Source of the DNA: Candidatus Bathyarchaeia archaeon
Lineage (GTDB): Archaea; Thermoproteota; Bathyarchaeia; Bathyarchaeales; Bathycorpusculaceae
DNA: 64,000 bases
NCBI GenBank assembly: GCA_049516875.1
Contig: JBEKSS010000010.1
Span: 54,371-118,370 of the forward strand
Direction: 5' to 3'
The notes under the pieces were generated by a model that searched no databases, was not told the origin of the DNA, and saw only the letters and a list, made by a program, of their open reading frames with translations. Shown in pieces: positions 37,537 to 56,843 of this stretch (the first letter of the stretch is position 1; each line of letters starts with the position of its first letter). The translations under genes and the position numbers were made by a program.

Positions 37537-40500
37537 TTGTCGAAGGCATCAAGTGTGGAAGAAACTCTGCATCAGGCTGAAGAACTGGAAAAAGAGTACG
37601 ATTGGTGTGGAGCTGCCAAGTGCTATGAGAAAGCGATAGGCTTGATGTCTGCCGAAGACTTCTCAAGGATGAGCGAGACTCAGGAGCGGTTGGGTTATGC
37701 GTTCTATCGTGCCGCCTTTCAAGTTGAAAGCAATAATGAGTTTATGGAAAGGATGCGTCAGGCTGTCGCAGCTTATGAGAATGCCAGAAAATTCTATGGA
37801 AGATTGAATGGGTTGGTAAAGACGCCCAGAATATTGCGTTGCAATGCGATGACCGCCTACATGAGTTATTGGCTTGCATCCGAAGTGCCTGAGAAGAAGA
37901 GGCTGATCAACGAGTGTTGGAGACTGACGAAGGAGTCACTAAAGACCTTCGAGGAAGCTGGCGCCACTTTGGAATATGGAAAAACGTACAACCAACTTTC
38001 AGCGAGCGCTTGTTTTGGATTCTTCTTTGAACGAGATCTTCAACCCCGAGAAAAAGTCGTGAAAGAGGCTATAGAACGAGGAGAAAGGGCAATCCAGTTC
38101 CTTTCCAAGTTAGAGGACTCTCATGAACTTGCGAAAGCTCTTGTCAGGACGGCTGGTTTCCTTGAACTGTTTGGCTACTATTTCCTTGACTCAGATGAGC
38201 GGGAGAGGTATTCTGAAAGAGCCAAAAGCTGCTGGCAGAGAGCCAAAGAACTTTCTGAAATGACAGCCATGATTGAATTATTGTGTATTCTGGCGCCGCT
38301 TGGTCTGAGTTGGGGTGTTGGTACAGATGAGACTTTGACGATTTTTCACAAAGCGTTAGAGTACGCTAGCAAAACGAAAGACAGGTTCATCGTTGGGTGC
38401 GCGCTTGAGTGGCTATCACTTAATACTTTTTGGAAGACTAGTCTTAGTGAAGATCCAGATGAACGGATGGAACTCGGAAAGAGGGCTTTACAGTATGCTG
38501 AAGACGCGAAACGTCACTATTCTTTAGTTTCTTTCATAAGTCCACTTGGTGATGTGCTCTGGGTAGAGGCACCTTACACTGAGTACTATTGGGCATCGGC
38601 CGGGGCGGAGACGAATCTGGCCAAGAGACGACAACTTTTGGAAAAAGCACTCGAGACCGCCCCTGACACGTTGAGGCGAGCTGAAAATTCTGGAATCCCA
38701 CAAAACATGCTTTATGCGCATCATGTATTCGCCAAAGTACTGGCATCTTTGGCCCTAACGGAAACTGACTCCGATGAGAAAAAAAGGCTCTTGGAAAAAG
38801 CTCTAATGCACAGGAAGGAATCTATTGAATTCACCGAATTACTCGGACCGTTCGACTATTGGAATCGGGGGGTTATGCAGAGCTACCTCGCTGAGATAAA
38901 ATCTGGGCTAGCCGACTTGTCTAAGGACAATGAGACGAAAAAGAGCATGTTACAAGAGGCTATACTTGACAAGGAAAACTCCTTGAAACTCTGCATTAAG
39001 GGAGTGGCATTCTTTGGAGGAAAAGGCCCATCCGCGCAATTGTGGAACATAGCGTTTTGGCAGATTGAATGTGGCACGTGGCTGAAGCGTCTTTATCAGT
39101 TAACTCACAACAATGAGGATCTGAGAAATGCCATAGGAGCCTTTGAGAACGCAGCTGAAACCAGTCAGAAGGCAAAAATGGAAAGCGGTATGGCTTGGTG
39201 CTACTGGAAAGCGGCTCAAGCCTATGATGATCTGGGCGAGCATCCAGAGGCGGCAAAAAGATTCATCCTTGCCGCGAGCAACTTCAGGAACGCCGCAGAC
39301 AAGATTCCTCAGTTGAAAGATCTTTACCACGACCAGGCCCTCTATATGCAGGCTTGGAGCGAAATCGAAGAAGCAAGACATCATCATGAACGACAAGAAT
39401 ACGCTATGGCAAAAGAGCATTTTCAGAAAGCTGCCGAACTCCACAAGCCGCTGAAAAAATGGAACTATCTGGTGCCCAACTATTCCGCTTGGGCAAGGGT
39501 CGAAAATGCAGAAGAGCTTAGCAGGAAAGAACAGAGTGAAGAGGCAATCAAAGCGTTTGAGGACGCAGCAACGCTCTTCGGGGAAACTAGAGACTCGCTG
39601 CAAACACAGCTTAGCAAGATTGAGGATACGGATGAAAAGCAAATGGTCTCCAGCATGATAAAGGCCTCAGGCCTGAGACAGGATTACTGCGACGTCAGGA
39701 TAGCCCTTGAAGAGGCGAAAATCCTGGACAAGAAAGGCAACCACTATTCCAGCTCAGAAAAATATGGTTCAGCAGCCGAAGCTTTCGAGAAAATTGGCCA
39801 AGCCTTGGAGTCAGAACAGGAGCGAAGGGAATTCAGATTTATTATCAATCTCTCTCGGGCTTGGCAGAAAATGACGTTGGCCGAAGCAGAATCGGCACCG
39901 GCGCTGTTTTTAGAAGCCTCTCAGCTTTTTGAGCAGGCGAAGGATTTTAGCCCAAACGAGAAGACGAAAATGCTGGTCTTAGGACACAGCAGATTCTGTA
40001 GGGCACTTGAGGCGGGAACGAGATTTGCCGACACGGCGGATGCAACGTTGCATGCGACCGCCATCCAGCAACTGGAAAGTGCTGCCAAGTACTATGTGAG
40101 GGCGGAATTCCAGAACGCTTCTGAATATGCCAGAGCTACTAAACTGCTCTTCGATGCTTATCTCTACATGGACAATGCTGGAAAGGAAAGCGACCCTGAG
40201 AAGAAAGCCAAACTCTACGTGATGGCCGAGAAGGTCCTGCAAACGTCAGCCGGCTCATACATGAAAGCAGAGCATCCTGAGAAGATGGAGCAAGTCTCGA
40301 AACTGCTGGAAAAGACAAAAGAAGAACGAGAACTCGCAACTTCACTGACTGAAGTGTTGCACGCTCCGCCGATCCTCTCGACAACGAAGGCTTTCACCAT
40401 TCCAACCCCGACCAGTGAAGAAGCGGTCGGCTCAGAAAGGTTTGAAAACGCCGATGTACAAGCAAACCTGATAGTCAGACAAAAGGAACTGAAGATCGGC

Positions 40501-40842
40501 GAACCCCTCAGCCTAGAAATAGAACTTGTCAACGCTGGAAAAGGCCCTGCTCTTCTGATCAAGATCAATGAAGCCATCCCTGAAGGTTTCGAACTGATCG
40601 AAAAACCGGAAAATTGCCGAGTAGAAGACAGCTTCATCAACATGAAGGGAAAACGGCTTGATCCCTTGAAGACTGAAGAGCTGAAACTGATTCTCAAACC
40701 GAAGGTTCAGGGCACGTTCACTCTGAAACCCACGATTTTGTATCTCGATGAGAACGGCAAATACAAGTCTCATGAACCAGAACCGATAAACATAACAGTC
40801 AAAGAACTCGGAATCAAGGGCTGGCTCAAAGGAGAAAGATGA
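37537..40842 (+). CDS. Large TPR/alpha-solenoid protein with C-terminal Ig-like beta domain, paralogue 1
   Basis: Helical A..F.KAA repeats; beta-rich last ~130 aa ending ELGIKGWLKGER; start re-set to TTG 37537 by alignment with paralogues. Confidence 0.85.
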   Translation: MSKASSVEETLHQAEELEKEYDWCGAAKCYEKAIGLMSAEDFSRMSETQERLGYAFYRAAFQVESNNEFMERMRQAVAAYENARKFYGRLNGLVKTPRILRCNAMTAYMSYWLASEVPEKKRLINECWRLTKESLKTFEEAGATLEYGKTYNQLSASACFGFFFERDLQPREKVVKEAIERGERAIQFLSKLEDSHELAKALVRTAGFLELFGYYFLDSDERERYSERAKSCWQRAKELSEMTAMIELLCILAPLGLSWGVGTDETLTIFHKALEYASKTKDRFIVGCALEWLSLNTFWKTSLSEDPDERMELGKRALQYAEDAKRHYSLVSFISPLGDVLWVEAPYTEYYWASAGAETNLAKRRQLLEKALETAPDTLRRAENSGIPQNMLYAHHVFAKVLASLALTETDSDEKKRLLEKALMHRKESIEFTELLGPFDYWNRGVMQSYLAEIKSGLADLSKDNETKKSMLQEAILDKENSLKLCIKGVAFFGGKGPSAQLWNIAFWQIECGTWLKRLYQLTHNNEDLRNAIGAFENAAETSQKAKMESGMAWCYWKAAQAYDDLGEHPEAAKRFILAASNFRNAADKIPQLKDLYHDQALYMQAWSEIEEARHHHERQEYAMAKEHFQKAAELHKPLKKWNYLVPNYSAWARVENAEELSRKEQSEEAIKAFEDAATLFGETRDSLQTQLSKIEDTDEKQMVSSMIKASGLRQDYCDVRIALEEAKILDKKGNHYSSSEKYGSAAEAFEKIGQALESEQERREFRFIINLSRAWQKMTLAEAESAPALFLEASQLFEQAKDFSPNEKTKMLVLGHSRFCRALEAGTRFADTADATLHATAIQQLESAAKYYVRAEFQNASEYARATKLLFDAYLYMDNAGKESDPEKKAKLYVMAEKVLQTSAGSYMKAEHPEKMEQVSKLLEKTKEERELATSLTEVLHAPPILSTTKAFTIPTPTSEEAVGSERFENADVQANLIVRQKELKIGEPLSLEIELVNAGKGPALLIKINEAIPEGFELIEKPENCRVEDSFINMKGKRLDPLKTEELKLILKPKVQGTFTLKPTILYLDENGKYKSHEPEPINITVKELGIKGWLKGER

Positions 40843-40893
40843 CCAAGCAAGGATGTTTTGCCAAATCCTTTGTGCGTGCATGAATAGCGCGCG

Positions 40894-41049
40894 CGAACAC
40901 TTCTTGAGAAAGCCCAGAGCTATTGTCGAGAAAAAGGTTATTCAAGAATTCTGCTCATAGTATCTGTGAATAATGCGAATGCCATAGGACTATACAACAA
41001 GATGAGTTTCAGAGTAGAACAGATGTACATGGGAAAAGTACTAAGCTGA
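40894..41049 (+). pseudogene. C-terminal fragment of a GNAT acetyltransferase
   Basis: RTLLEKAQSYCREKGYSRILLIVSVNNANAIGLYNKMSF...*; no start; 5' break inside TAGCGCGCGCG. Confidence 0.75.
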
Positions 41050-41235
41050 AAGCACATCAATGAACAGCATAACTCTGCTGACATTTTTCTATGTGTCAAA
41101 GTTGCTGTCTGTTAGACTTGAGCTTCTTTTCTATCTGATATTCTTTTCATGATGCAGTCTTTAATACTAATTCACCTAATCTTATCTTTTGGGTGTCAAT
41201 GGTGGTTGACATACAGACTGTTTCTGGCGCGCGTG

Positions 41236-42003
41236 ATGAAGGGGGCAGGCGGATTGGACCTTAGAGGAAAAACGCTTATAGTAACAGGAGCTTCAAGGGG
41301 AATAGGCCGAGCTCTAGCTTCAGAACTGGCTCAAAATGGTGTCAACCTTGTCTTGAACGCCCGAAGCGAAGCACCCCTCGAGGAAGTGGCTATTGCTGCC
41401 CGAGGGAAAGGTGTGAACGCATTGACAGTAGTGGGCGATGCCGCGTTAGCCCGCAACGCCCGGGAGATGGTGAAAGCCGCGGTTGGCATTGGCGAATTCA
41501 TTGGTTTCATTCACAACGCGGGAACCGCTCATCCAGGTCCATTCTTGTACGAACTACCTGAAGCCACGTTCGAGGATGTCTGGCGATCCAACGTGTTAGC
41601 TGGTTACCAGATAGTGCGCTTCTCCTATCCAGAGCTGCGCCAAAGGAAGAGTAGCCTAGCGGTCTTCTTTGGGTCGGGAGCCGCAGAGATGAACGTAGAA
41701 GGCATCGGAGCCTACTGCCTGTCCAAGGCAGCGGAAGAACATTTGGCGAGACAACTCGCCGCCGAGGTCCCAGAAATCACTTGTTTCGTGTATCGACCTG
41801 GGGCTGTCGAGACTGAGATGCAGAAGAGTGGTCGGGAAGCAAAAGGCAGCGGGGCTAAGGTGTTACACCGAGTCTTCGGAGAGTTGAAGGAGCGAGGAAC
41901 CCTCCTAACTCCCGAAACAGCTGCGCGAGCATTAGTGCAGATAATCCAGAGAGACCCGCGCCACTTTCACGGCAAGACAGCTACCTATAAGGACGGATTG
42001 TGA
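41236..42003 (+). CDS. Short-chain dehydrogenase/reductase
   Basis: TGASRGIG, HNAG, YCLSK, PGAVETEM; start ATG 41236 or TTG 41254. Confidence 0.9.
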   Translation: MKGAGGLDLRGKTLIVTGASRGIGRALASELAQNGVNLVLNARSEAPLEEVAIAARGKGVNALTVVGDAALARNAREMVKAAVGIGEFIGFIHNAGTAHPGPFLYELPEATFEDVWRSNVLAGYQIVRFSYPELRQRKSSLAVFFGSGAAEMNVEGIGAYCLSKAAEEHLARQLAAEVPEITCFVYRPGAVETEMQKSGREAKGSGAKVLHRVFGELKERGTLLTPETAARALVQIIQRDPRHFHGKTATYKDGL

Positions 42004-42124
42004 AAGTAGCGCGAGCTCAAATCTAGTGGCGATATTTCCCGCAGCGCGCTACAGAATCAATTGACTATGACATAACTTTTATGTGTTCATTGTGAACTAG
42101 TGAAGCGCGCGCTAAGGGTGGGGC

Positions 42125-42179
42125 AAGCGAATCATGAAAAGCCTTTTCAGAGACTTGCTGATAACTTGTTAGTGGTTTG
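42125..42179 (+). promoter_or_regulatory. Conserved upstream element, copy 2
   Basis: aagcgaatcatgaaaagccttttcagagacttgctgataacttgttagtggtttg. Confidence 0.75.
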
Positions 42180-42184
42180 CCGGT

Positions 42185-45100
42185 ATGTCAGATATGTCAA
42201 GTCTAGAGGCAATTCTGAGTAGTGCTGAAGGAAAGGAGAAAGAGTACGATTGGTTGGGGGCAGCTGAGTCTTACAAGAACGCCTTGGGCTTGGTGCCCGA
42301 GCAAGATTCTTTGAGGATGAGTGAGGTTCACGAGCGGTTGGGCTATGCTCTTCACCGTTTTGCGTTTCAGGCTGAAAGCAATGACGAGTTCAGGCAAAGA
42401 TTGCATCAGTCTATTCTGAGCTATGAGAAGAGTAAGGAACTTTATGGAAGGTTAAATGAGTCCGTGAAGATGCCGAGGATGTTGCGTTGCGACGGCTTAA
42501 TCACATATCTGAACCATTGGCTCGCAGTCGAAGCAGGTGAAAAGAAGAGGCTGCTTGATGAATGTTGGAGATTGACAAAGGATGCTTTGAAAGCCTTTGA
42601 GGAGGTGGAGGATGCTTTGGAATATGGGAAAACGTACAACCAACTCGCCTCAAGCGCTTTTTTAGCCTATGTCCTTGAATGGAATTTTCAAGTCGGTGAG
42701 AAGATAATTAGAGAGGCGATGGAGCTCGGAGAGCGAGCAGTCACTTTGCTGTCCAGCGTCGGTGACCCTTACGAACTTGCAAGAGCATACGTAAAAGCAG
42801 CCTTTTACCTAACTACGTTCAGCCTTTATTTCGTTCCTGACTTGGATGAGAGGGAAAGACTTCGCCAAAAGGGTCAAGGTTATCTGCAGAAAGCCATCGA
42901 GCTTTCGGAAGAAACAGCGTTGCTTGCGCTGGCGGGCACACCTGGCGTCACTGGCGATGAAACAGGCTTGAGCATTGATGACATGCTCGTGCACTTTGAG
43001 AAAGCATTAGGCTACGCAAAGAAAACCAAAGACAAATATCTGATCGGAACCGCACTCGACTGGCTAACATATGCTGCTGGGTGGAAATCCATGCTAATCG
43101 AAGACCCGGACAAAAGGTTGGAGGCTGGGCAAAGAGCTCTGCAGTACGCTGAAGACGCCAAACATCAGTTCTCGTCAATCTCATTCGTGAGCCCACGTGG
43201 TGACGTATTGTGGACGGAAGCACCTCACGCCCAGCTCTACATGCAAAAGGCTCTCTTTGAGACTGATTCGAGGAAAAAACGCGATTTGCTGGAAAAGGCA
43301 GTGATAGATGGTGCCCCCACGATAAGATTGGCCGAGAGCACAGGCTACCCTGGAATCACAGCGCATGCGTATCAAATATTGAGCGTGGCGCTGGGGCGTT
43401 TGGCAGAAATTGAACCGAGCCTTGAAGAGAAAAAGAGCCTCTTGGAAAAAGCTATGGAACACGGGACGAAGACTGAAAAAATCGTGGAGCAACAGTATCC
43501 CTTCCTTTACTGGAACCGAGGCTTTAGACTGTTCTTCTTCGCTAATTTGAAGGCTGAAATGTCGAATTCAGAAAAAGACTCTGGGAAAAAAAGGAACATG
43601 CTTGAAGAAGCTATCTCAGACAAAGAGCGTGCCCTGCAGCTGTGCATCAAGGAGAGTTTGCAGTTTGAAAGGAGAGGTGACCTATCACTTTCCACTACTC
43701 TTGCGTTTTTCCAGTATTCTTATGGAGAGTTGCTTAACCGTCTTTACGGGTTAACCAACAGCAACGGGTATCAGAGAAAGGCAATAAAGACCTTCGAGGA
43801 GGCCGCCGAATCATATCAAAAAGCAAATCTGTTAAGCCGTGTGGCTGAGTGCTGCTGGAAAACTGCGAGAGGCTATGGCGCTCTCGGCGAACATCTAAAC
43901 GCTGCTAAAAACTTCAACTTGGCCTCAAACAACTACACGAGTGCCGCCGAAAAGATTCCTCAACTCAAATCCTTCTACCAAGACCACGCCCTTTACATGC
44001 AGGCTTGGAGCGAAATCGAGAAGGCAAGACATCATCATGACAGACAAGAGTATGGTTCAGCAAAGGAACATTTTGAAAAGGCTGCTGAACTACACAAGTC
44101 GTTGAAACGGTGGGGCTATCTAGAGCCCAACTATTCTGCTTGGGCTCAAGTCGAAAACGGAGAAGAACTGAGCAGGAAAGAGCAGAGCGAGGAAGCAATC
44201 GAAGCATTTAAACAAGCTGCAACGCTATTCAGCGAGAGCAAGAAATCGCTACAAACACAGCTCAGCAAGATTGAAGACGAGGATGAAAGGCAGATGGCGA
44301 CCAGTATGATCAAAGCCTCAGATTTGAGACAGGAATACTGCGACGCTAGAATTGCCCTTGAAGAAGCGAAAATTCTCGACAAGAAAGGTGAGCACTTCGC
44401 TAGCTCTGGGAAATATGGCTTCGCAGCCGAGACTTTTGAGAAAATAGGTCAGAATTTGGAGTCAGAACAGGAGCGAAAGGAATTCAAATTCATCATTAAT
44501 CTTTCCCGAGCTTGGCAGAAAATGATGTTGGCCGACGCCAAAGCTTCACCAGAGTTGTACTTGGAGGCATCTGCACTCTTTGAACAGGCGAGCAAAGAGA
44601 GTAACAACGAAATGACAGGTCTCCTTGCGTTGGGGCACAGTCGTTTCTGCAGAGCTCTTGAGGCGGGAACGAAATTTGCGGACACAGGAGACGCGGTGTT
44701 GCACAAGGTTGCTATACAGCACTTAGAAAGTGCCGCCAAATACTATGTGAAAGCTGGCTTCCAGAGCGCTTCAGAATACGCTAAAGCGACAGGACTGCTC
44801 TTTGATGCTTATGTGCACATGGATAACGCTAAGAGGGAAGAAGACCCGGAAAAAAAGGCTAAACTCTACACGATTGCTGAAAAAGTTCTGCAAACATCCG
44901 CTGGTTTCTACATGAAGGCAGAGCACCCAGAGAAAAGGGAACAAGTGATGAGACTGCTCGACAAGGTAAGGGAGGAAAGAGAATTGGCTGTATCAATTGC
45001 TGAGGTCTTGCACGCCCCAACTGTCATTTCAACAACGACATCTTTTGTTGCCCCGACTCCAACCAGCGAAGAAGCCGTCGGCTCAGAAAGATTTGAGCAT

Positions 45101-45493
45101 GCAGACGTACAGGCAAACCTGATAATCCGTCAAAAGGATTTGAAAGTTGGCGAAAGCCTTGACATAGAGTTGGAACTCGTGAACGCTGGAAAGGGGCCTG
45201 CGCTTCTGACTAAAGTCACTGACATTATCCCCAATGGTTTCGAGCTGACAGAAAAACCCGAAGCCTACCGAGTAGAAGATAGCTACCTCAACATGAAAGG
45301 AAAACGACTTGACCCGCTCAAAACAGAAGAAGTGAAACTCGTTCTTAAGCCCACATTACAAGGCATGTTTTCATTCAAACCGACAGTACTGTACCTAGAC
45401 GAGAGGGGGAAGTACAAGTCACACGAACCGGAACCCGTGACGATAGTGGTCAAAGAGCTCGGAATCAAGGGATGGCTCAAAGGAGAAAGATGA
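42185..45493 (+). CDS. Large TPR/alpha-solenoid protein with C-terminal Ig-like beta domain, paralogue 2
   Basis: Collinear with paralogues 1 and 3; identical terminus KELGIKGWLKGER. Confidence 0.88.
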   Translation: MSDMSSLEAILSSAEGKEKEYDWLGAAESYKNALGLVPEQDSLRMSEVHERLGYALHRFAFQAESNDEFRQRLHQSILSYEKSKELYGRLNESVKMPRMLRCDGLITYLNHWLAVEAGEKKRLLDECWRLTKDALKAFEEVEDALEYGKTYNQLASSAFLAYVLEWNFQVGEKIIREAMELGERAVTLLSSVGDPYELARAYVKAAFYLTTFSLYFVPDLDERERLRQKGQGYLQKAIELSEETALLALAGTPGVTGDETGLSIDDMLVHFEKALGYAKKTKDKYLIGTALDWLTYAAGWKSMLIEDPDKRLEAGQRALQYAEDAKHQFSSISFVSPRGDVLWTEAPHAQLYMQKALFETDSRKKRDLLEKAVIDGAPTIRLAESTGYPGITAHAYQILSVALGRLAEIEPSLEEKKSLLEKAMEHGTKTEKIVEQQYPFLYWNRGFRLFFFANLKAEMSNSEKDSGKKRNMLEEAISDKERALQLCIKESLQFERRGDLSLSTTLAFFQYSYGELLNRLYGLTNSNGYQRKAIKTFEEAAESYQKANLLSRVAECCWKTARGYGALGEHLNAAKNFNLASNNYTSAAEKIPQLKSFYQDHALYMQAWSEIEKARHHHDRQEYGSAKEHFEKAAELHKSLKRWGYLEPNYSAWAQVENGEELSRKEQSEEAIEAFKQAATLFSESKKSLQTQLSKIEDEDERQMATSMIKASDLRQEYCDARIALEEAKILDKKGEHFASSGKYGFAAETFEKIGQNLESEQERKEFKFIINLSRAWQKMMLADAKASPELYLEASALFEQASKESNNEMTGLLALGHSRFCRALEAGTKFADTGDAVLHKVAIQHLESAAKYYVKAGFQSASEYAKATGLLFDAYVHMDNAKREEDPEKKAKLYTIAEKVLQTSAGFYMKAEHPEKREQVMRLLDKVREERELAVSIAEVLHAPTVISTTTSFVAPTPTSEEAVGSERFEHADVQANLIIRQKDLKVGESLDIELELVNAGKGPALLTKVTDIIPNGFELTEKPEAYRVEDSYLNMKGKRLDPLKTEEVKLVLKPTLQGMFSFKPTVLYLDERGKYKSHEPEPVTIVVKELGIKGWLKGER

Positions 45494-45603
45494 CCTAACA
45501 ACGCAGTTTTGTCCAATCCTTTATGCGCGCATAAACACTTGACAACGCCCGCAAGTTTAGCAGTCATAAGAAGCGGTGCGCGAAGGAGGACCAAGCATTG
45601 AGG

Positions 45604-47697
45604 CTAGCTAGGGAAAGGACAGTTCAACGTGGGACACCCGCCTGAATATTCCGGTTCGAGGGACACGAACTTGCCCTTGTCAGTTTTTATCTCTCCAATG
45701 TACAACACTTGCTCAGGTTTGCTGCCGTACCTGAACACGGTGACGCCTTTGCATTTCAGCTTCCAGGCCAGCTCATAGATTTTCCTAACATCTTCAACCT
45801 TGGCTTCCGAAGGCAAGTTAACGGTCTTTGAAACAGCGTTGTCAGTGTACTTCTGGAAAACAGCCTGCATTCGCACGTGCCATTCGGGCGCGATGTCTAA
45901 AGCCGTAGCGAAGAGCCTCATCACTTCCTCAGGAACCCCTTCAATCTTCTGCACAGAACCCGTGTGGGCTATCTCTTCAAGCAGTTTTGCGCTGTAGAAC
46001 CCGCGCTCCTTAGACATCACCTCAAACAACGGATTCGTTTCAAACAGCCTCGTCCCGCTTAGAACGTTCCTTATGAAGGATATCGCGAAGATAGGCTCTA
46101 TGCCCGAAGAACAGCCGGCAATTATGCTTATGGTTCCTGTGGGTGCAACGGTTGTGACCGTGGAGTTTCTGAGTGCAGAATGCCTGTCTTTCCAGATGCT
46201 GCCTTCAAAGTTAGGGAAAGAACCCCGTTCCTGACCCAACTCCTCAGACCGCTTGTGCCCCTCCTCCTCGATGAACTTCATTATCTCATCGCCCTGCCTC
46301 AAAGCCTGCTCAGAATCGTACGGAATTCCAAGCTTGACAAGCATGTCCGCGAAACCCATCACGCCCAAACCTATCTTCCTATTAGCCAACGTAATCTCCT
46401 CGATCTCCTTCAAGGGATACCTGTTCGCGTCAATCACATTGTCAAGAAAATGCACCGCGTTCCTAACAGTCTCCCCGAGCTTCCTCCAATCTATCTTCCC
46501 GTCCACGACCATCTGGGACAAGTTGATAGAACCCAAGTTGCAAGACTCGTAAGGAAGCAACGGCTGCTCCCCGCAAGGATTCGTGGACTCTATTCTTCCC
46601 ACTTGTGGAGTGGGATTGTGTCTGTTGATTTCGTCGATGAATATGACGCCTGGGTCGCCGCTCATCCAGGCTGACTTTGCCATCAAATCCCAAACCTCTT
46701 TCGCGTTGAGCTTCTTGGTCTTCTCCTTGTTCCGCGGGTTCACAAGCCAGTACTCGCCGTTTTCCTCAACGGCCTTCATAAAGTCATCAGTCACCGCGAC
46801 TGAAATGTTGAAGTTTGAGAGAAACCCAGGCTGCTGTTTGGAGGTTATGAACTCGACAACGTCCGGGTGGTCGACTCTCAAGACTGCCATCATCGCTCCC
46901 CTGCGTTTTCCGCCAGCCTTTATGATTTCTGTGCCAGTGTCAAAAATCCTCATGAAACTGACTGGTCCAGACGCTACTCCCTTGGTTGACTTGACTATGT
47001 CGCCTTTAGGCCTCAGCCTCGAAAAATCGAAGCCGACGCCTCCACCACTCTGCTCTATCAAGGCCATATTCTTTGCTGAAGTGAAGATGCCACCGAGCGA
47101 GTCCTCAACCGGCAGGACAAAACACGCTGACAGCTGACCAAGCCGCGTGCCAGCGTTGAACAGAGTCGGTGTGTTAGGGATGAACTCAAGCCTTGACATC
47201 ATCCCGTAGAACACTTTTTCAATTTCGTTCGGGTTCGCACCGTAGTTACTGTCTGCAGCTGCTACTGCCCGAGCTACTCTCTTGAACAGTTCAGCCGGGG
47301 ACTCTACGATTCTTTCATCTTCATCCCTCAGAAGGTATCTCTGCCTTAAGACTTCAAGCGCGTTTACAGTTAGCTTGGGCTCCTCAAATTCCAGCTTTTG
47401 TCTTAACTTCCTGATTTCCTGCTTTTTCTCCCTGTAGGCCTGATAGCTTTCAGCAACTTTTCCGCACCCTTTCTCCTTCAAAACCCTTACAACAGCGTCC
47501 TGTGCATCCTCGACAGAGGGAACCTTTCCCTCGAACTTCTGCTCTAGAAGCTTGACAACCTCAATCGTAATGCTTTCAGCTTTCTCCCCATCGTGAAGTT
47601 CCACAGCGATGAAAGCCTTGTATACTGCATCTCTGATTCTCCGTGGCTCAAAATCAACGACTCTCCCGTCCCTTTTTGTAATCTTCAAAATGGGCAT
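45604..47697 (-). CDS. nrdJ: Class II (B12-dependent) ribonucleotide reductase with N-terminal ATP cone
   Basis: ITKRDG ATP cone, [38 protein letters not shown]-terminal Cys pair. Confidence 0.93.
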
Positions 47698-48274: not shown

Positions 48275-48379
48275 CGAATACGCTTTTTCCTGTTTGGCTT
48301 ATAAAGATTGTCAAATCTTCAAATCTGGCATTGTCAAGAAGAATGGAAAGAAAAAAGGAAAATCTTCTGAACGTTTGCG

Positions 48380-48535: not shown

Positions 48536-48921
48536 TTTTTGACATCTCCCCCTTTTCCATGCTTCTTATAATAATCTTCAATTGCGGCGTGCAACGCGTC
48601 TGCGGCAAGGTTGGAGCAGTGCATCTTGATGGCAGGAAGTCCGCCCAGCTCATCTGCAACGTTTGCCCGCGTGATTTTCAAGCCTTCTTCCAACGTTTTT
48701 CCCTTGGCCAGTTCGGTAATCATGCTGCTCGTCGCGATTGCTGAGCCACAGCCAAACGTTTTGAACTTGATGTCGACCAAACGGTTGTCTTTGACTTTAA
48801 TGTAAATTGTCATCAAGTCACCACACACGGGGTTTCCCACCGTGCCGACGCCGTCAGCATCCGGGATTTCGCCGACGTTGCGAGGGTTTTTGAAGTGTTC
48901 CATGACCTTTTCGGTGTACAT
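48532..48921 (-). CDS. iscU: Fe-S scaffold IscU/NifU
   Basis: HFKNPRNVG, PVCGD, FGCGSAIA, LPAIKMHCS. Confidence 0.95.
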   Translation of the reverse strand: MYTEKVMEHFKNPRNVGEIPDADGVGTVGNPVCGDLMTIYIKVKDNRLVDIKFKTFGCGSAIATSSMITELAKGKTLEEGLKITRANVADELGGLPAIKMHCSNLAADALHAAIEDYYKKHGKGGDVKK

Positions 48922-50105
48922 TATGTTTTCAACTCCTTTGGTGTCAGAGGTGACATACCTCTTAGTCTCTTAACGATGTCTGGCATTAAGCTTGCTGCGT
49001 AGTCAACATCTTCTTCCGTGTTGTTCCTGCCCAGAGTAAACATCAGGGAGCCATGAGCCTCCTCGTGCTTCAGTCCGATTGCCAAGAGCACGTGTGACGG
49101 TTCTAGGGTCTTGGCCGTGCAGGCGGAACCAGATGATGCGTACACGCCCATCATGTCTAGGCTGAGCAGCATAGACTCTCCTTCTATGAAGCTGTATCTT
49201 ACGGAGACGTTGTCGGGCAGACGTGTGGTCGGATGCCCGTTCAAGAAAGAATACGGAATCGGCTTCAGCAAACCGTCGATGAACATGTCTCTCAGTCTGG
49301 TGAGCCGCGCACTCTCAGTCTGCATTTCCTTCTTGGCTATTTCCGCAGCCTCTCCAAACCCTACGATGGCCGCCACGTTCTCTGTCCCTGATCTGAGACC
49401 TCTTTCCTGGCCGCCACCGTGCAACAGAGGTTCGAAGCGCACCCCTTCTTTTATGTAGAGCGCGCCTAGGCCCCTTGGGCCGTACATGTCGTTCGAAGAG
49501 ATTGTTAGCAGGTCTATGCCTTCATTCTTGACGTCCACTGGGATCTGGCCACAAGCGGCCGTGGCATCAACGTGTAGATAAGCGTTCTTGGCGTGCACTA
49601 TTTTGCTGATTTCTTTTATGGGTTCGATTGTTCCTATTTCCCCGTTTGCGTACACTATGGACACGAGGACCGTTTTGTCGGTTAATTCTTTCTGCAAGCT
49701 CTCAAGGTTCAAGAAGCCATACTTGTCAACTGGAACAAAAACGACTTCAAACCCTTTTGTAGTCAAGAACTTGCATGGGTTAACGACGGACATGTGCTCC
49801 ACACTGGAGGTAAGGACACGATTCCCTCGATCCTTGTTGCGGTTGACCACGCCTTTGATGGCCAAGTTGTTGCTCTCTGTTGCTCCTGAAGTGAAGATTA
49901 TCGATTCTTTTTTCTCAGCGTTAATTAATCCTGCAACCTTTGCTCTTGCTTCTTCGACTGCACGCTTTGCTTCTTGGCCAAACACGTGTAGTGATGATGG
50001 GTTTCCATAGGACGATTTCATGTAAGGCAGCATGGCTTCTATCACGCGAGATTCCACGGGTCTGCCCGCCGCATGATCCATATAGATTCGCTTTGTTGCG
50101 GACAA
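48921..50105 (-). CDS. iscS: Cysteine desulfurase IscS/NifS-like
   Basis: GNPSS, FTSGATE, RSGTEN, SSGSACT; usual PLP motif SxHK reads SSND here. Confidence 0.88.
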   Translation of the reverse strand: MSATKRIYMDHAAGRPVESRVIEAMLPYMKSSYGNPSSLHVFGQEAKRAVEEARAKVAGLINAEKKESIIFTSGATESNNLAIKGVVNRNKDRGNRVLTSSVEHMSVVNPCKFLTTKGFEVVFVPVDKYGFLNLESLQKELTDKTVLVSIVYANGEIGTIEPIKEISKIVHAKNAYLHVDATAACGQIPVDVKNEGIDLLTISSNDMYGPRGLGALYIKEGVRFEPLLHGGGQERGLRSGTENVAAIVGFGEAAEIAKKEMQTESARLTRLRDMFIDGLLKPIPYSFLNGHPTTRLPDNVSVRYSFIEGESMLLSLDMMGVYASSGSACTAKTLEPSHVLLAIGLKHEEAHGSLMFTLGRNNTEEDVDYAASLMPDIVKRLRGMSPLTPKELKT

Positions 50106-50116
50106 GGCCTGCTCAC

Positions 50117-50482
50117 TTAGAAACAGAGAACACCGTCAGCATTAAGGGCCAAATCATTAAGGGTTGCCGCGCCCACAATCTGCGCCTCTTTCGTGAAGTC
50201 GCCCCGCGGAATGCCCATTAACCCACAGCTCTGCTCGCATACGACAAGCTTGACTCCAGCTTTCACTGCCTGATCCATTACCTCTTTAAGCGACGGAAAA
50301 CTGCCAACCTTGATTTTCTCAGCTTCCCCTTTCTTGACAAGCGTGATACCCTTGATTACAAAGTAGACGGTGGCGTCAACGTTCATCATCGCAGCTGTGG
50401 TAGCCAGAATGAACGGTGCATAGGCTCTTTCAGGGGTGTCAACGCCGCTAGTTTGCACGTACAGCATCTTCTTAGCACTCAT
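50117..50482 (-). CDS. DsrE family sulfur-relay protein
   Basis: APFILA..A, AGVKLVVCEQS, VGAAT. Confidence 0.85.
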   Translation of the reverse strand: MSAKKMLYVQTSGVDTPERAYAPFILATTAAMMNVDATVYFVIKGITLVKKGEAEKIKVGSFPSLKEVMDQAVKAGVKLVVCEQSCGLMGIPRGDFTKEAQIVGAATLNDLALNADGVLCF

Positions 50483-50505
50483 TTCATTTCACTTCCTGAT
50501 AATCC

Positions 50506-50742
50506 TCATCTAACCTTCCTTACTAATATACGAACCGCATTACCCTCCTTGCTAACGCTCACCAATTCTTGCTCCAGGTTCTTCACGAGGCTACGTATAT
50601 CGGATTCCGCCGCAGGATCGTCCGCCAGAACCTCCAAAGTCTCGCCAACCTTCAGCTCATCCAGCTCTAATCTTGTCTTGAAAACGGGTTCAGGACAGTA
50701 CAAGCCCAGGCAGTCCAACGTTCTGTCAGGCTTAACCTTCAT
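50506..50742 (-). CDS. tusA: TusA/SirA sulfur carrier
   Basis: LDCLGLYCPEPV, GETLEVLADDP. Confidence 0.92.
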   Translation of the reverse strand: MKVKPDRTLDCLGLYCPEPVFKTRLELDELKVGETLEVLADDPAAESDIRSLVKNLEQELVSVSKEGNAVRILVRKVR

Positions 50743-50815
50743 GATATATCCTCTCATCAACAGTCCAAAAAGGGGAATAAATAAGTTACTGAGTCTGTAA
50801 CGCCGTACAATTCGT

Positions 50816-51068
<253 letters not shown>

Positions 51069-51132
51069 TCACCCAAGCTAGAGTAAAAACCTGGAAATAT
51101 TAACTCTTCTGTCTCTCCAAGATGCTTCAACC

Positions 51133-51687
51133 TTAGCGCGTGGGCCTCTTCCTCTTTCTTCTGCGTTGCAGCTTAGGAACGTTGTCAACCTGTTCTGTTG
51201 GGAAATACCAGGGCATCGTGACGTAAGAGCTTGGTGGAATATGCCTGCCGTGTTTTCTGGCTCTTTCTTGGAGTTTGACCGTGCGCTTTTTGATGATGCG
51301 TTCCCATTCTTTTTTCTTTGAATTTGGGATCAACTCGTTCAGTTTGTCCGCAAGCTTCTCTGCGTCTTTGAGTTCAAGCGGAATGAGGATGTCGCGACGA
51401 TGTAGAAGGCTTATCTTGACTTTTCCTGTTTCATTCACACGAACCTTCTCTATGTCGGTGAGGCGTATGTGCAAAGGAACAAACACGCTGAGAATGCCGC
51501 CGATGGTTTCTTTGAGAATCGGCTTGTTTTCAAGCGCTTCCTCAATGTCGTTCTTCAAGCTCCCCTTCAAGTCTATCTTGAGCTGATTCTCATCAAGCCT
51601 TACTGTGAAATGCTGCGTTTCAAATTCCAGAATTGCAGTTGCTTCAGGCATACCCACATCCTCTGGGAGCACGCGTTCATCAATCAA
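51133..51687 (-). CDS. Hypothetical protein (beta-rich core, basic tail)
   Basis: 184-aa ORF with normal composition; no family recognised. Confidence 0.65.
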   Translation of the reverse strand: MIDERVLPEDVGMPEATAILEFETQHFTVRLDENQLKIDLKGSLKNDIEEALENKPILKETIGGILSVFVPLHIRLTDIEKVRVNETGKVKISLLHRRDILIPLELKDAEKLADKLNELIPNSKKKEWERIIKKRTVKLQERARKHGRHIPPSSYVTMPWYFPTEQVDNVPKLQRRRKRKRPTR

Positions 51688-51908
51688 TCTGCATTGGAAG
51701 TCTCATATTTGACTTGTGCCACGTGGTCATTCAATCTCGACTCCGAGCGTGGGAAAGATTTTCTGCAGTGTTTATGATTGACGGCTAACGTAAGCTGACC
51801 CTGCGAGATCGAAGAATATCTGGCGGCCATTCTTGGGATGACGAATTCGTGACGAAAGGCAAAGTCTTATCTAAACATGGGTTCATGTTGAGAAAGGAGT
51901 TTGCGATC

Positions 51909-52346
51909 ATGAGGGAAGGCTCAGGAAGGAAATCTAACGTACTCGGTGTCCGCTTCTGGTACACTGGCATCCGCGTGAAAGACCTCGAGGAATCGATCAG
52001 GTTCTACAGGGAAGCGCTCGGATTCCACATCGTGTTGAAAGGCAGGATGGTCGCTCACGAAGGGACATACGTCCACATGAGGACTCCAACCGGCAAGCAG
52101 ATTCTTGAACTGAACTATTATCCGAAGACGAGCAAGTTCTACGAAGACTATGTGAACGGCTCGGAGCTAGACCACATCGGGTTGTACGTGAGCAACGTTA
52201 GAGAACAATACAAAAGGTTAATCGAACTTGGATGCCAACCCGCAGTAGAGCCATTCAACCAAGGTTCTTGGGTTCTAGCCTTCGTCAAGGATCCCAACGG
52301 CATCTGGCTGGAACTCATCGGCAGAGAACACAAGAAAAAGGCGTAG
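51909..52346 (+). CDS. VOC/glyoxalase family protein
   Basis: YTGIRVKDLEESIRFY, LELNYY, DHIG, FVKDPNGIWLEL. Confidence 0.87.
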   Translation: MREGSGRKSNVLGVRFWYTGIRVKDLEESIRFYREALGFHIVLKGRMVAHEGTYVHMRTPTGKQILELNYYPKTSKFYEDYVNGSELDHIGLYVSNVREQYKRLIELGCQPAVEPFNQGSWVLAFVKDPNGIWLELIGREHKKKA

Positions 52347-52651
52347 AACGCCCGAAGACTCTTCAGGTCTATTCGTATACACTTGACTACAGACCTGACA
52401 TGTCCAACAGCTCGGTTAGCGCGCGCAGAAAAAATCATTTAACAACTGAAATCTTTCAAAACGTAGTTGTCTAAGGAGTGGTCAGTTGGCGTGGGGGCGT
52501 AGGATTTGATGCTATGGGGCCATTGCTCATGCTGCGTGTCAGAAACTGCTATGATGTCCTGCAATATGCCAGTTACGCGTTTGATTCTTGTCTTCAGGTC
52601 GAAGGGCAACTGTTATTATCGCACGTTGATGAATACGTACTACTGGTAAGA

Positions 52652-53068
52652 ATGCCCGTAAACACAGAGCATCTTAAGCAAAGAATCAGTGAAATTCTTG
52701 AGGCGAAATCAGAACTGGTAAGACTCACCTCAAAGCCCTTCTCAAAGCTGAGTCTGGAAGAGAAATACGCGGTTAGGTACCAGATCATAGTGCTGGCTGA
52801 GGGTTTGGGAAGCATATGTGTACAAGTGGCAACTGAAGACTTCAAGCTTGAACCCAAGTCTTATTCCGAGTGCTTCAAGCTTCTAGAAGAGAGGCGAGTG
52901 CATGAGTGCGCCAAGGATCTTACAGTAATAACAAGACTGAGAAACCTGCTGACTCACCATTACTGGACCATAGATGACAAGCAGGTGTACGAGTCTATCA
53001 GGGATGACTTCAAGAGTGTTGATGAATTCACCAAGAATGTGAAGCAACGATATGCGATTGTCCTATGA
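52652..53068 (+). CDS. HEPN (DUF86/HepT-like) RNase toxin
   Basis: P.SY.ECF..L, RNLLTHHYW (Rx4HxY); start re-set to ATG 52652. Confidence 0.87.
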   Translation: MPVNTEHLKQRISEILEAKSELVRLTSKPFSKLSLEEKYAVRYQIIVLAEGLGSICVQVATEDFKLEPKSYSECFKLLEERRVHECAKDLTVITRLRNLLTHHYWTIDDKQVYESIRDDFKSVDEFTKNVKQRYAIVL

Positions 53069-53450
53069 CACAATACGATTCTACAAGCTCGATTCTGAGA
53101 GAAGGAAGAGTATCATCAGAAGACTAAAGGAAGATCTTGCCAGAGAAGAAAAGATCAAGCTCGGATTAGTCTTTGGCAGTTTGACAACAAGGCATTCTGT
53201 AAGAGACGTAGACGTCTGCATCTACTCTGTTCCTATCATGGACTTCAAGGAACTCTTGGACATCAATGCACGTGTAGAACTCGACATAGGCATCCCAGTT
53301 GACATTTCAGAACTCTCGAACCTTCCCCCTTCGCTCAGAATAGACATCCTCAGGCACGGTATTCTAGCGAAGGGTTCGAGAAGTTTCTCCTATCAACTTC
53401 TAGACCAAGCCTACGCGGAACTCATGGCGATTAAAACAATCATCAGTTAA
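53052..53450 (+). CDS. Minimal nucleotidyltransferase antitoxin (MntA-like)
   Basis: VFGS..RDVDV, PVDI..L..LPP; overlaps HEPN gene. Confidence 0.87.
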   Translation: MRLSYDTIRFYKLDSERRKSIIRRLKEDLAREEKIKLGLVFGSLTTRHSVRDVDVCIYSVPIMDFKELLDINARVELDIGIPVDISELSNLPPSLRIDILRHGILAKGSRSFSYQLLDQAYAELMAIKTIIS

Positions 53451-53555
53451 ACGCGCGTGCAGGCCGAGTTCGTCTGTAGTGGACGGGTGGGACTTGCACT
53501 CCGCGAGGCCAAATCCTACAATTATCGTATCAAGTCTCAAAACAGGCTTACGCGT

Positions 53556-56500
53556 TCATCTTTCTCCTTTGAGCCAGCCTTTGATTCCCAGTTCCTTAAC
53601 GGTCACTGTTACCGGTTCGGCTTCGTGTGACTTGTACTTGCCGTTCTCGTCGAGATACAGTATCGTCGGTTTCAGCGGAAAAACGCCTTGAACCTTCGGC
53701 CTGAGGATGAGTCTGATCTCCTCCGTCTTTAGAGGGTCGAGACGTTTTCCCTTCATGTTGATGAAGCTGTCCTCCACGCGGTAGATTTCCGGTTTTTCAG
53801 CCACTTCAAAGTCTTTCGACACTACGCCCGTCACCTTGATAAGCAAGGCAGGACCTTTTCCGGCATTCACGAGTTCTATTTCCATGTCGAGGTTTTCACC
53901 GACCCTCAGCTCTTTCTGGTGCACTATCAGGTTTGCTTGTATGTCTGCGTGCTCGAACCTTTCTGACCCAACGGCCTCTTCGCGGGTTGGTGTTGGCGTA
54001 GTGAAGGAACTTGTAGCAGAAACGATGGTCGGAGCATGCAAAACCTCAGTGATGGACAATGCGAGTTCCCGTTCCTTTCTTGTCTTTTCCAGCAATCCCA
54101 GCACCTGCTCTCTCTTCTCAGGATGCTCCGCTTTCATGAAAGAGCCAGCCGATGTCTGCAAAACCTTCTCAGCCGCTGCATAAAGCCTAGCCTTCTTCTC
54201 AGGATCATCTTCTCTTGCTGCGTTATCCATTTGCAGGTAAGCATCAAGAAGCAGCTTCGTGGCCTCACAGTATTCCGAGGCCTTCGGGAAGCCCGCCCTT
54301 ATGTAGTAGTTAGAAGCGCTTTCCAAGCATTTTATTGCCTCAGAGTGCATCTCCCTGTTCCTAGAATCAACGAATTCCGTTCCCGCTTCCAGTGCTTTAC
54401 AGAAACGGCTGTGGCCCAAGACTAACATCTTCGTTTTCTCATTCGGGCTAGACTCCTTGGTTTCCTCGAAAATTCTGGAAGCCTCCGCGTACGATTCAGG
54501 TGAGGCCCCTGCCTCAGCGTAGGTCATTTTTTGCCATGCTCTGGAAAGCCCGATAATGAGTTTGAACTCCCTGCGTTCTTGTTCCGTGTCCAGTGTTTGG
54601 CTTATTTTCTCAAAGCTTTCAGCTGCTGACCCGTATTCCTCGGAGCTGGAGTAGTGATCGCCTTTCTTGTCGAGGATCCTTGCCTCTTCGACCGCAACTC
54701 TGGCCATGCAATACTTCTCTCTAGTGTCAGTTGCCTTGATCATGCCACTGGCCATTAGCTTCTCCTCTGGGTTTTCAATGTTGGCTAGCTGTGTCTGAAG
54801 TAGTTCTCTGCTTTCGTTGAAGAGCCTAGCCGCCTGTTGGAATAGTGTGATTGCTTCTTCACTCTCCTCGTTTCTGCTCAGTTCTTCTCCGTTTTCAACC
54901 TGCGCCCATGCGAAGTAGTTAGGTGCAAGATAACTCCAGTGCTTAAGCGACCTGTGTATGTTGGCGGCTTTTTCGAAGTGATCTTTTGCTGAGCCGTATT
55001 CCTGTTTTCCATGATGGTTTCTTGCTTTTTCAATCTCGCTCCAAGCCTGCATGTAAAGCCGGTAATCTTGGAAGAGATCCTTGAACTGAGGAATCTTCTC
55101 CGCAACAAGTTCATAGTTTTTTGAGGCAAGCTCAAAGTGTTCTGCGGCCTTAGCGTGCTCACCACGTTGGTCGAGGAGTTTTGCAGCTTTCCAGTAGGCC
55201 TCAGCTACCCGGCTTGGCATTCCCGCCTTTATATAGACGTGGGCCGCACCCTCATGCACTTCTACCGCCTTTCGAGTGACTCTTTCGTCTTTTGAAAGTG
55301 AATACAGTTGGCCAAGGATGCGGCCGAACCAGTCATAGTACCATCCTAAAACTGCATAGTTCCTTGGCAAACGAGCAACATCTTTTTGCAGCCATGCCGT
55401 GCATATTCCAATACACTTTTCCATGCGTTGAACGGCTTCTTCAAGAAGATGCCTTTTCCGACCCACGTTCTCTTCGATTTCAGCCAAATCAGCGTATATC
55501 AGAGCCAAATAGTTCTGGTAAACGCCGCAATCCCACTCACCAGGACGAATCAGCTGATCAGATATCCTGATTGTTATCTCTCTGAGATGTAGCGCTTCTT
55601 CAAGCAGTCTCTTTTTTTCGTTGATGTCCCCCTCGATTTCGGAGAGAAACAACTCAGCCTTGCTGAGCGAATGAGAAATACCTACGATGGATCCTGCAGA
55701 ACCGGAAAGTCTGGCGTATTCGGAACCTTTGAGGCCCACTTTGACTGCTTGTTCCAGAAAAGCATGCTTTTTTTCGTGCCCAGTTTCAAGTTCTGCAAGC
55801 CTGATACAGTTTTCAACGAGCGATTGGTGCGAATTGGCAACCCTGTCGTAACGATGAATCGTCAGGTCTAACGGGATACACTGCTCGTCGAATCGTATTG
55901 CCAGCTTATACTTTTCTTTCAGTCTGTCCGGATCCTCTTCTGTGGTCGCTTCCCAGCTTATCATGGTAGACTTTACGGCATACGCCGTTTCTGCCAAGAA
56001 GCGGTCCTTTGACTTCTTGCTTTGCTGAATGACCTCTTCAACGTACTTTGATACCCCCTGCCAATCTCCCGTAACCAAAAAACTGTTTCCGCCAAGTGTC
56101 ATATAAACGAAGAAAAGAAGATACGCGTCTCCTGTTTTCTCCACAAGTTTTGAGGCTTTTCCCAGATAACTCGAAATCAGCGAGACAAATTCTGTTCTTC
56201 TTTCTTCAAATAAATCTAACCAAAAGACCATGAAATATGACACTAAAGCGTAGGTCCATGCCAGCTCGCTCGGGCTCAAATCATTCGAGAACTTGGTGAT
56301 AATGTTCTGCCCATAACCTATCACTTCTTCAGCGATGCGTTTGCGCTCATGCCAGTCTCCCTCCAAAACATCCTTGTCCATGAGACAGAACGACAGCCCG
56401 TGAAAGGCTTTCCAGTAGCCCAAGTAATCTCCTGTGCCCTCAGAAACCTCAAGAACCTCTTTCAGCAACTTTGAACATTCATCTAACAACTTCTTTTTCT

Positions 56501-56843
56501 GTGTGGAATCTTCTTCGGACCAAGAATCAGAGTAACTAGCCATAGCCCTGCAATACAAGCCTCTCGCCGAGCTAGTCTTTTCCAATAGTTCCGCAGCCCG
56601 TTGGTAAGACTGAGCCGATAGCTGCATACGCTTTTCAAACTCTTCTGCCGTCTCTGCCTGAAAAGCAGCTCTGAAGAAAATGTGACCAATCCTCTCGTGC
56701 AGCTCGCCCCTCTTCAAGTAGTCCAGCTCTGAAAACAATTCTGAAGCCTTACCGTAGGAGTCAGCAGCTCCTAACCAATCATAATCCTCTTCCTGTTTCG
56801 CTGCACGACTGAGAATTGATTCTGCATCCGACGACTCCGACAT
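53556..56843 (-). CDS. Large TPR/alpha-solenoid protein with C-terminal Ig-like beta domain, paralogue 3
   Basis: Collinear with paralogues 1 and 2; same C-terminus. Confidence 0.88.
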   Translation of the reverse strand: MSESSDAESILSRAAKQEEDYDWLGAADSYGKASELFSELDYLKRGELHERIGHIFFRAAFQAETAEEFEKRMQLSAQSYQRAAELLEKTSSARGLYCRAMASYSDSWSEEDSTQKKKLLDECSKLLKEVLEVSEGTGDYLGYWKAFHGLSFCLMDKDVLEGDWHERKRIAEEVIGYGQNIITKFSNDLSPSELAWTYALVSYFMVFWLDLFEERRTEFVSLISSYLGKASKLVEKTGDAYLLFFVYMTLGGNSFLVTGDWQGVSKYVEEVIQQSKKSKDRFLAETAYAVKSTMISWEATTEEDPDRLKEKYKLAIRFDEQCIPLDLTIHRYDRVANSHQSLVENCIRLAELETGHEKKHAFLEQAVKVGLKGSEYARLSGSAGSIVGISHSLSKAELFLSEIEGDINEKKRLLEEALHLREITIRISDQLIRPGEWDCGVYQNYLALIYADLAEIEENVGRKRHLLEEAVQRMEKCIGICTAWLQKDVARLPRNYAVLGWYYDWFGRILGQLYSLSKDERVTRKAVEVHEGAAHVYIKAGMPSRVAEAYWKAAKLLDQRGEHAKAAEHFELASKNYELVAEKIPQFKDLFQDYRLYMQAWSEIEKARNHHGKQEYGSAKDHFEKAANIHRSLKHWSYLAPNYFAWAQVENGEELSRNEESEEAITLFQQAARLFNESRELLQTQLANIENPEEKLMASGMIKATDTREKYCMARVAVEEARILDKKGDHYSSSEEYGSAAESFEKISQTLDTEQERREFKLIIGLSRAWQKMTYAEAGASPESYAEASRIFEETKESSPNEKTKMLVLGHSRFCKALEAGTEFVDSRNREMHSEAIKCLESASNYYIRAGFPKASEYCEATKLLLDAYLQMDNAAREDDPEKKARLYAAAEKVLQTSAGSFMKAEHPEKREQVLGLLEKTRKERELALSITEVLHAPTIVSATSSFTTPTPTREEAVGSERFEHADIQANLIVHQKELRVGENLDMEIELVNAGKGPALLIKVTGVVSKDFEVAEKPEIYRVEDSFINMKGKRLDPLKTEEIRLILRPKVQGVFPLKPTILYLDENGKYKSHEAEPVTVTVKELGIKGWLKGER

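Follow-up and report, generated by a model that had tools for sequence, protein, structure and literature searches.

Short C-terminal tags that work with a cognate membrane protein are known for secreted proteins, among them those of the PEP-CTERM/exosortase and PGF-CTERM/archaeosortase systems, and MinD is the type case of a terminal membrane-targeting sequence. Avs proteins and fungal NLRs are STAND/NLR-like receptors with membrane effectors. For archaea, Makarova, Galperin and Koonin reportedly described in 2017 a signalling network of KaiC-like ATPases with inactivated KaiC (iKaiC) domains, which may include some of the KaiC-fused architectures treated below. Inactivated KaiC domains and the proposal of a KaiC hub are treated in PMC5847659, and the 2017 paper is cited in PMC6393860. 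Here we analyze a 64,000-nucleotide stretch from a Candidatus Bathyarchaeia archaeon (the host genome; GenBank assembly GCA_049516875.1, contig JBEKSS010000010.1, positions 54,371 to 118,370 of the forward strand; hereafter the window), which encodes three paralogous solenoid proteins with an Ig-like domain and a short C-terminal tail (copies 1, 2 and 3; Table 1). Elsewhere in the same genome lies the gene for a 98-residue membrane protein, which occurs genome by genome together with this tail. We consider it rather probable that sensors of this and other families dock through the tail on the membrane protein, and the pattern as a whole suggests a signalling hub of tag and receptor that has not been described before.

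The tail resembles the CTERM tags in that it is a short element found on many unrelated proteins and is coupled in each genome to one dedicated membrane protein. It differs from them in that the tag has no transmembrane (TM) helix in the window proteins, sits on cytoplasmic proteins without a signal peptide and can be internal, and in that its putative partner is only 98 residues long and matches no enzyme family. As in the KaiC/iKaiC network, many inputs would lead to one hub, and relatives of the window proteins carry KaiC outputs that lack a Walker A motif, often beside an active KaiC gene. Unlike that network, the window proteins carry the tail in place of a KaiC domain, none of 58 tail loci has a KaiC neighbour, and the gene coupled to the tail is that of a small membrane protein. 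In the literature covered, which left out the 2017 KaiC paper and most papers behind a subscription, nothing was found on the solenoid-Ig family, the tag or the membrane protein. Little is understood of how archaea pass on signals when the modules common in bacteria and eukaryotes are lacking, and most members of the abundant Bathyarchaeia have yet to be cultured. The 10-residue tag and the membrane protein form a small testable pair that links many unannotated sensor families, and the proposed KaiC hub is also concerned, since one and the same slot holds either the tag or inactive KaiC domains.

The C-terminal tail and the 98-residue membrane protein

Each of the three window proteins closes with VKELGIKGWLKGER, and across the family the tail follows the pattern ExGIxGW[LI][KR]G. 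Its Glu is near-invariant (92 of 93 motif-selected tails), a short helix is predicted at low confidence, and basic residues often follow. The original prediction, made from the DNA letters alone, had described the tail as invariant and amphipathic. The end is indeed the same in all three copies; however, strict invariance fails across the wider family and the amphipathicity is weak, with a best hydrophobic moment of 0.60 over the eight core residues and three hydrophobic residues on the face.

A search with the C-terminal half of the window proteins (C-half) found 1797 proteins among 7998 scored candidates. Further carriers of the tail come from profile matches and from pattern scans of sequence collections, in which the carriers found are a minimum. 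The tail terminates 119 of the 120 best C-half matches. Among the matches listed, it also terminates FIST-like, STAND-TPR-Ig, TPR, alpha/beta-hydrolase, CBS-Ig and FHA proteins as well as at least two KaiC-like families, stand-alone KaiC-like proteins included. In five tail-ended proteins a TM helix and a basic cluster are combined with a zinc ribbon and an Ig domain; their ectodomains differ, and four of the five have a signal-like N-terminus. The tail can also be internal: in one STAND subfamily it lies within the NTPase domain, and in protein P0319 it precedes a further domain. Because the tag occurs on proteins that are already anchored and is conserved at the level of single residues, a protein-binding motif fits better than a lipid anchor. 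Bacterial matches to the pattern are internal and fall in unrelated proteins, presumably similar to PQQ dehydrogenase and kynureninase, and were judged to be due to chance. Single-pass receptors with varied ectodomains, a Ser/Thr stalk, zinc ribbon, Ig domain and tail were recorded as P0303, P0304, P0309, P0310, P0318 and L358:1284-2717, the last of which has its gene tail to tail with a membrane-protein gene. The host genome itself has FIST-like tail genes at G000:C4:7055-8629 (-) and C1:60086-61634 (+), with the C1 copy broken into three frames.

The membrane protein has three probable membrane helices, with a basic loop after the second and a weakly hydrophobic first helix that carries invariant Pro, Ala, Ser, Gly and Thr residues. 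It has 844 homologues, and searches of Pfam, PADLOC and PDB gave no family and no significant structural match; an identity with MscL was considered and dropped, as the match (E 0.16) is not significant. In the host genome its gene immediately follows a decayed seventh copy of the solenoid family, of which a palindrome (described below) and the first ~25 codons are kept. When neighbours were clustered, a gene for a protein of ~98 residues was found directly behind tail genes of three families and in both orientations. Such a gene stands beside tail genes in 32 neighbour rows, corresponding to ~20 distinct loci, and beside none of 39 non-tail loci.

The same coupling was observed at the level of whole genomes. 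In a sample of 251 genomes of the class, the tail pattern was matched in 16 and its reversed control in none, while the membrane protein was found in 17, namely in all 16 tail-pattern genomes and in G050. In the latter, the gene of an FHA protein whose tail is a variant form lies 6 kb away from the membrane-protein gene. The membrane protein is absent from all 20 genomes that have a solenoid or Ig match without the tail. In 11 of the 17 membrane-protein genomes the 1.5-kb flanks of the membrane-protein gene are free of tail genes, and the coupling is therefore not one of linkage alone. The solenoid was also considered as a receptor of the tail; this is unlikely, as 4 of the 16 tail genomes have no solenoid match.

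Regarding the mechanism, we propose that the variable, recombining N-terminal solenoid recognizes a putative ligand, probably a protein, and that an output is relayed or presented by the C-terminal solenoid, which is constrained, together with the Ig domain. In the window proteins the output would be the short tail, serving as a portable docking tag that could bring the cytoplasmic sensor to the dedicated three-helix membrane protein by physical binding. The membrane protein would act downstream, either as an anchor or as a gated effector. We also offer, as a possible but rather doubtful extension, a new archaeal hub in which unrelated cytoplasmic sensors and surface receptors acquire the 10-residue tag and thereby bind and switch a single tiny membrane protein that acts as a death effector or a gated channel. 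In such a hub, the giant solenoids would be a recombining receptor repertoire, and the tag a peptide-coded alternative to the KaiC hub.

Several points weigh against docking of the tail on this protein. Co-occurrence indicates a shared pathway and not direct contact, and a third protein could bridge the two. The variant tail of G050 was found by a relaxed pattern whose reversed control matched equally often. In a second set of genomes the membrane protein was found in 18 of 24 tail genomes, with six, of completeness not given, having no match; three of the 18 positives had fed the query alignment, and one apparently duplicates a genome of the first set. The genomes are moreover related, such that the 17 represent fewer independent events (five families and the host genome), and tail counts from pattern scans are skewed toward the pattern itself.

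A possible accessory component is a 184-residue protein encoded in the window (Table 1), for which Pfam gave no family. Its relatives occur in 13 of the 251 genomes, comprising 10 of the 16 tail genomes and three others, and so track the tail in part.

Solenoid, Ig domain and interchangeable parts

An AlphaFold2 model of copy 2, built on 111 sequences with a mean predicted local distance difference test score (pLDDT) of 89, shows helices from residue 2 to 942, followed by a linker of low confidence (942-970), the beta-sandwich at 975-1089 and the tail, where pLDDT is <50, and supports the helical solenoid and Ig fold expected earlier. With the whole model Foldseek retrieved generic TPR arrays (such as Ctr9, IFT-A and Ski3) at a TM-score of 0.24 or less, and a PDB sequence search with the three copies retrieved designed repeat proteins only. 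The best Foldseek match of the Ig domain is a chain of the TRAP complex (E 3.6e-8, TM 0.68, 22% identity), which we infer from Pfam to be the beta subunit. PF05753 matches copy 2 above its cut-off (E 3.7e-6, 26.9 bits against 22.4) and stays under the cut-off in copies 1 and 3. The Pfam families TRAP_beta and BatD both match the Ig region, and an Ig profile retrieves DUF11 repeat proteins. Judged by sequence and model, the domain is of the DUF11/TRAP-beta/BatD type (PF01345, PF13584, PF05753), with which residues 975-1089 agree in sequence and fold. Because many Ig folds tied in a VIA search with the domain (Z 10-12), the link to TRAP holds at the family level only. Ig domains of this type are mostly extracellular or lumenal, unlike here, where they are cytoplasmic, including in the receptors in which the Ig domain follows a TM helix and a basic cluster. 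The model of copy 2 has one such domain and a few relatives have two, whereas the solenoid of large TRAPP subunits precedes several Ig domains and works with Bet3-type partners.

A cytoplasmic location of the three window proteins is supported. All 19-residue windows stay below a hydropathy of 1.8 (maxima 1.69, 1.15 and 1.48 for copies 1, 2 and 3), in agreement with the proposed lack of a TM helix. Neither a STAND NTPase domain nor, by Pfam, a KaiC domain was found in them, and the lone regex match to a Walker A motif, in copy 1, lies inside a predicted helix and is not kept in copies 2 and 3, in line with the expected lack of an NTPase motif.

The three genes encode collinear paralogues, as had been predicted, and align end to end over their full length. 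Pairwise identity is 48/31/34% over columns 1-590 versus 76/70/69% over columns 591-1109, with a step at about residue 550-600 and copy 3 the most divergent. The divergence is thus non-uniform along the length, and the described contrast between a conserved C-half and a divergent N-terminal half (N-half) stands. Among six paralogues the proportion of synonymous differences (pS) is saturated in both halves (0.79, 0.78), whereas that of nonsynonymous differences (pN) is 0.42 in the helical N-half and 0.19 in the C-half, from which it follows that the C-half is under stronger purifying selection. Since synonymous sites are saturated in both halves, recent gene conversion was rejected as the source of the C-half similarity, and the likeness is attributed to selection.

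In trees of 48 family members the N-half and C-half topologies conflict. The N-half of copy 3 groups with that of locus L099 (Shimodaira-Hasegawa-like approximate likelihood-ratio test, SH-aLRT, 95); the same pairing is rejected in the C-half tree (approximately unbiased (AU) test, p 6.5e-14), and the C-half grouping of copy 3 is rejected in the N-half tree (p 1e-36), where the groups were chosen after the first trees and the p-values are therefore generous. Along copy 3, sliding identity favours L099 at first and, after a switch at residues 511-630, around residue 570, the other paralogues of the host genome, and in one lineage the C-half is preceded by a different, short N-domain. The conflicting trees, the identity switch and the alternative N-domain together identify the N-half as an exchangeable module, which recombination near residue 570 passes between family members. 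At L146:3982-7316, in a metagenome-assembled genome (MAG) labelled Methanobacteriota, the gene is split at the N/C junction into two open reading frames (ORFs), a candidate for a natural split or a broken gene.

Several outputs, the tail among them, can take each other's place in a slot that follows the solenoid-Ig part, a feature overlooked in the original prediction. In relatives this slot is filled by the tail, by KaiC-like domains (one or two), by a winged helix presumed from a weak Pfam match, by a CN-hydrolase (nitrilase), by an AAA+ domain or by a class III nucleotide cyclase. An intact Walker A motif is missing from all 43 KaiC-like domains of the fused type. The KaiC-fused forms are not monophyletic on the C-half tree, where they require at least three to four switches (AU p 6e-112). 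An active KaiC gene adjoins 10 of the 39 non-tail loci versus none of the tail loci, counts for which flank lengths are unequal and loci non-independent, and the sole KaiC-like match in the host genome is without the Walker A lysine. When FIST-like proteins were collected by homology, irrespective of the tail, the seven intact genes ended in the tail (three), a KaiC-like domain (two), a winged helix (one) or both of the latter (one), and STAND-TPR proteins show the same tail, KaiC and winged-helix alternatives. A sensor with a swappable output, as well as inactive KaiC outputs, is already known in outline. At the KaiC-fused loci L020, L023, L024, L033, L212, L213 and L217, a bactofilin-zinc-ribbon gene and HTH_45-iKaiC regulators recur.

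Alternative explanations

The three proteins had been proposed to be membrane-associated scaffolds or receptors; a link to the membrane is likely, while a role in membrane remodelling finds no support. Scaffolds akin to adaptin, coatomer, TRAPP or SNAP would share the solenoid plus beta-sandwich layout seen in the model, and Asgard clusters gave feature scores of 0.81-0.88, below the tool's lead threshold. We nevertheless regard such scaffolds as highly improbable. Among the Foldseek matches listed, the solenoid resembles generic TPR arrays only, Pfam shows no adaptin match, N-terminal trunk included, in the three copies at E 0.01, and the model ends in a single beta-sandwich and 12-residue tail with no platform subdomain. 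The Ig domain is of another type, and the fusion partners are signalling domains. Adaptin, coatomer and large TRAPP subunits are also absent among the Foldseek and VIA matches listed, though such an absence is no exclusion. The suggested likeness to alpha-SNAP comes down to a match of PF14938 to 56 residues of copy 3 alone, at 19.3 bits against a cut-off of 25, and is not upheld. PMC10307638 describes Asgard TRAP and adaptor homologues with adaptor domains not fused together, and no link to these was found beyond the sub-threshold Atlas scores. The family leaves the list of coat-like eukaryotic signature candidates. A direct lipid anchor, for which MinD had been invoked, is quite unlikely; the membrane protein would then belong to the same pathway without binding the tail. 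Like the MinD sequence, the tail is a short terminal segment rich in Gly, Lys and an aromatic residue (Trp), with a helical moment; the tail is also often followed by basic residues. Unlike the MinD sequence, the tail is conserved per residue, including a Glu that sits poorly with a lipid-binding face of three hydrophobic residues, and it occurs on TM proteins, ahead of a further domain and inside a STAND domain. A lipid anchor also does not predict a genome-by-genome coupling to one membrane protein. Very little credit is due to the idea that the tail is a PIP-box-like motif tethering sensors to PCNA or another universal protein. Its spacing, x-x-x-hydrophobic-x-x-W-L, fits the PIP consensus (Qxxhxxaa) given in PMC4858679, and the Gln of the PIP box is dispensable according to PMC7101311 and present in one of 47 native FEN1/PolB3 C-terminal motifs of the class, taken from 57 complete C-termini of 60 loci. 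However, position 1 is Glu in none of these 47, position 4 is Leu in 45 compared with mostly Ile in the tail, and PCNA, nearly ubiquitous with 30 of 31 genomes, cannot account for the coupling to the membrane protein.

Defence is the remaining alternative, and we think it unlikely. On this view the solenoids would diversify as pattern receptors, and the membrane protein would be an effector of death or dormancy that opens or oligomerizes once the tail has docked. As in STAND/NLR receptors there is a variable TPR-like sensing region with shuffled N-halves, a small putative membrane partner, and STAND-TPR proteins among the tail carriers; the patchy spread of the family, with several intact and broken copies per genome, is consistent with such a role, as are the invariant residues of helix 1 and the weak, non-significant resemblance to MscL. 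Unlike those receptors, the window proteins have no NTPase and no convincing match in a defence library, since PADLOC assigns no family to copies 1 and 2 or to the membrane protein and gives copy 3 a weak Csx1 match (E 1.6e-4) with no stretch passing. The recurrent neighbours listed, judged by their sequence starts, are not recognizable defence genes, most alternative outputs, such as the winged helix, cyclase and KaiC, have a regulatory and not a toxic character, and no sign of positive selection was detected at saturated synonymous sites. Docking of sensors on the membrane protein is the explanation that we prefer.

Genomic copies, family spread and window neighbours

The host genome contains six intact copies, three of which lie outside the window, and two remnants, one C-terminal and one N-terminal, the latter on contig C2. 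A 15-bp palindrome is located ~35 nt upstream of all six intact copies and of the N-terminal remnant. With at most one mismatch it has 11 distinct genomic sites, 7 of which precede family copies or this remnant. The TTG start of copy 1 is consistent with the spacing to the upstream palindrome. Upstream of copies 1 and 2 the palindrome overlaps an ATG, the start of an ORF of 12 codons (37487-37525 and 42134-42172). In the remaining copies this ATG is in another frame or missing, which makes a DNA site likelier than a leader peptide.

Table 1. Positions of the features discussed (window coordinates unless a contig is given)
Feature	Position	Strand	Remarks
Copy 1, solenoid-Ig-tail protein	37537..40842	+	1101 aa, TTG start
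Copy 2, solenoid-Ig-tail protein	42185..45493	+	1102 aa; used for the AlphaFold2 model
Copy 3, solenoid-Ig-tail protein	53556..56843	-	1095 aa; chimera, N-half from another lineage
Variable N-terminal solenoid, copy 2 (aa 1-585), presumed sensing half	42185..43939	+	pN 0.42; helical in model
Conserved C-terminal solenoid, copy 2 (aa 586-942)	43940..45010	+	alignment and model
Ig-like beta-sandwich, copy 2 (aa 975-1089), DUF11/TRAP-beta/BatD type	45107..45451	+	Pfam, Foldseek
Swapped-in N-half, copy 3 (aa 1 to ~570)	55134..56843	-	sliding identity switch
Tail ELGIKGWLKGER, copy 1	40804..40839	+	
Tail ELGIKGWLKGER, copy 2	45455..45490	+	
Tail ELGIKGWLKGER, copy 3	53559..53594	-	
15-bp palindrome before copy 1, promoter/operator candidate	37488..37502	+	~35 nt upstream
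15-bp palindrome before copy 2	42135..42149	+	
15-bp palindrome before copy 3	56878..56892	-	one arm mismatch
Three-helix membrane protein, 98 aa, unannotated, outside window	G000:C2:214523-214819	-	L466:2024-2320
184-aa protein, unannotated, possible accessory component	51133..51687	-	relatives within 5 kb of membrane-protein gene in 8 genomes

The family is large and patchily distributed in Bathyarchaeia, with matches in 32 of the 251 genomes, part of which are matches to the Ig region only. Named records among the matches listed are chiefly from Bathyarchaeia, with a few MAGs of Thermoplasmata or Methanobacteriota. No relative was found in viral contigs, no RNA holder is among the matches listed, and a search for shorter homologues gave, among those listed, contig-end fragments. 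Three typical copies (L093, L110, L150) come from a MAG labelled Acidiferrales bacterium, which suggests a mislabelled archaeal bin.

Among the neighbours in the window, an SDR oxidoreductase gene (41149-42003) lies between copies 1 and 2 and is flanked by GCGCGCGC octamers at 40887 and 42105; this octamer has seven matches in the window versus 0.72 expected. A HepT/MntA-like toxin-antitoxin pair (52478-53450, +), which falls below NCBIfam cut-offs, converges on the end of copy 3, and the next gene upstream of copy 3, in the same orientation, encodes a membrane sensor histidine kinase (57371-59194, -). A 489-residue protein (60556-62025, -) has no Pfam, NCBIfam or PADLOC match, and its C-terminal part may be a degenerate MCM-type ATPase.

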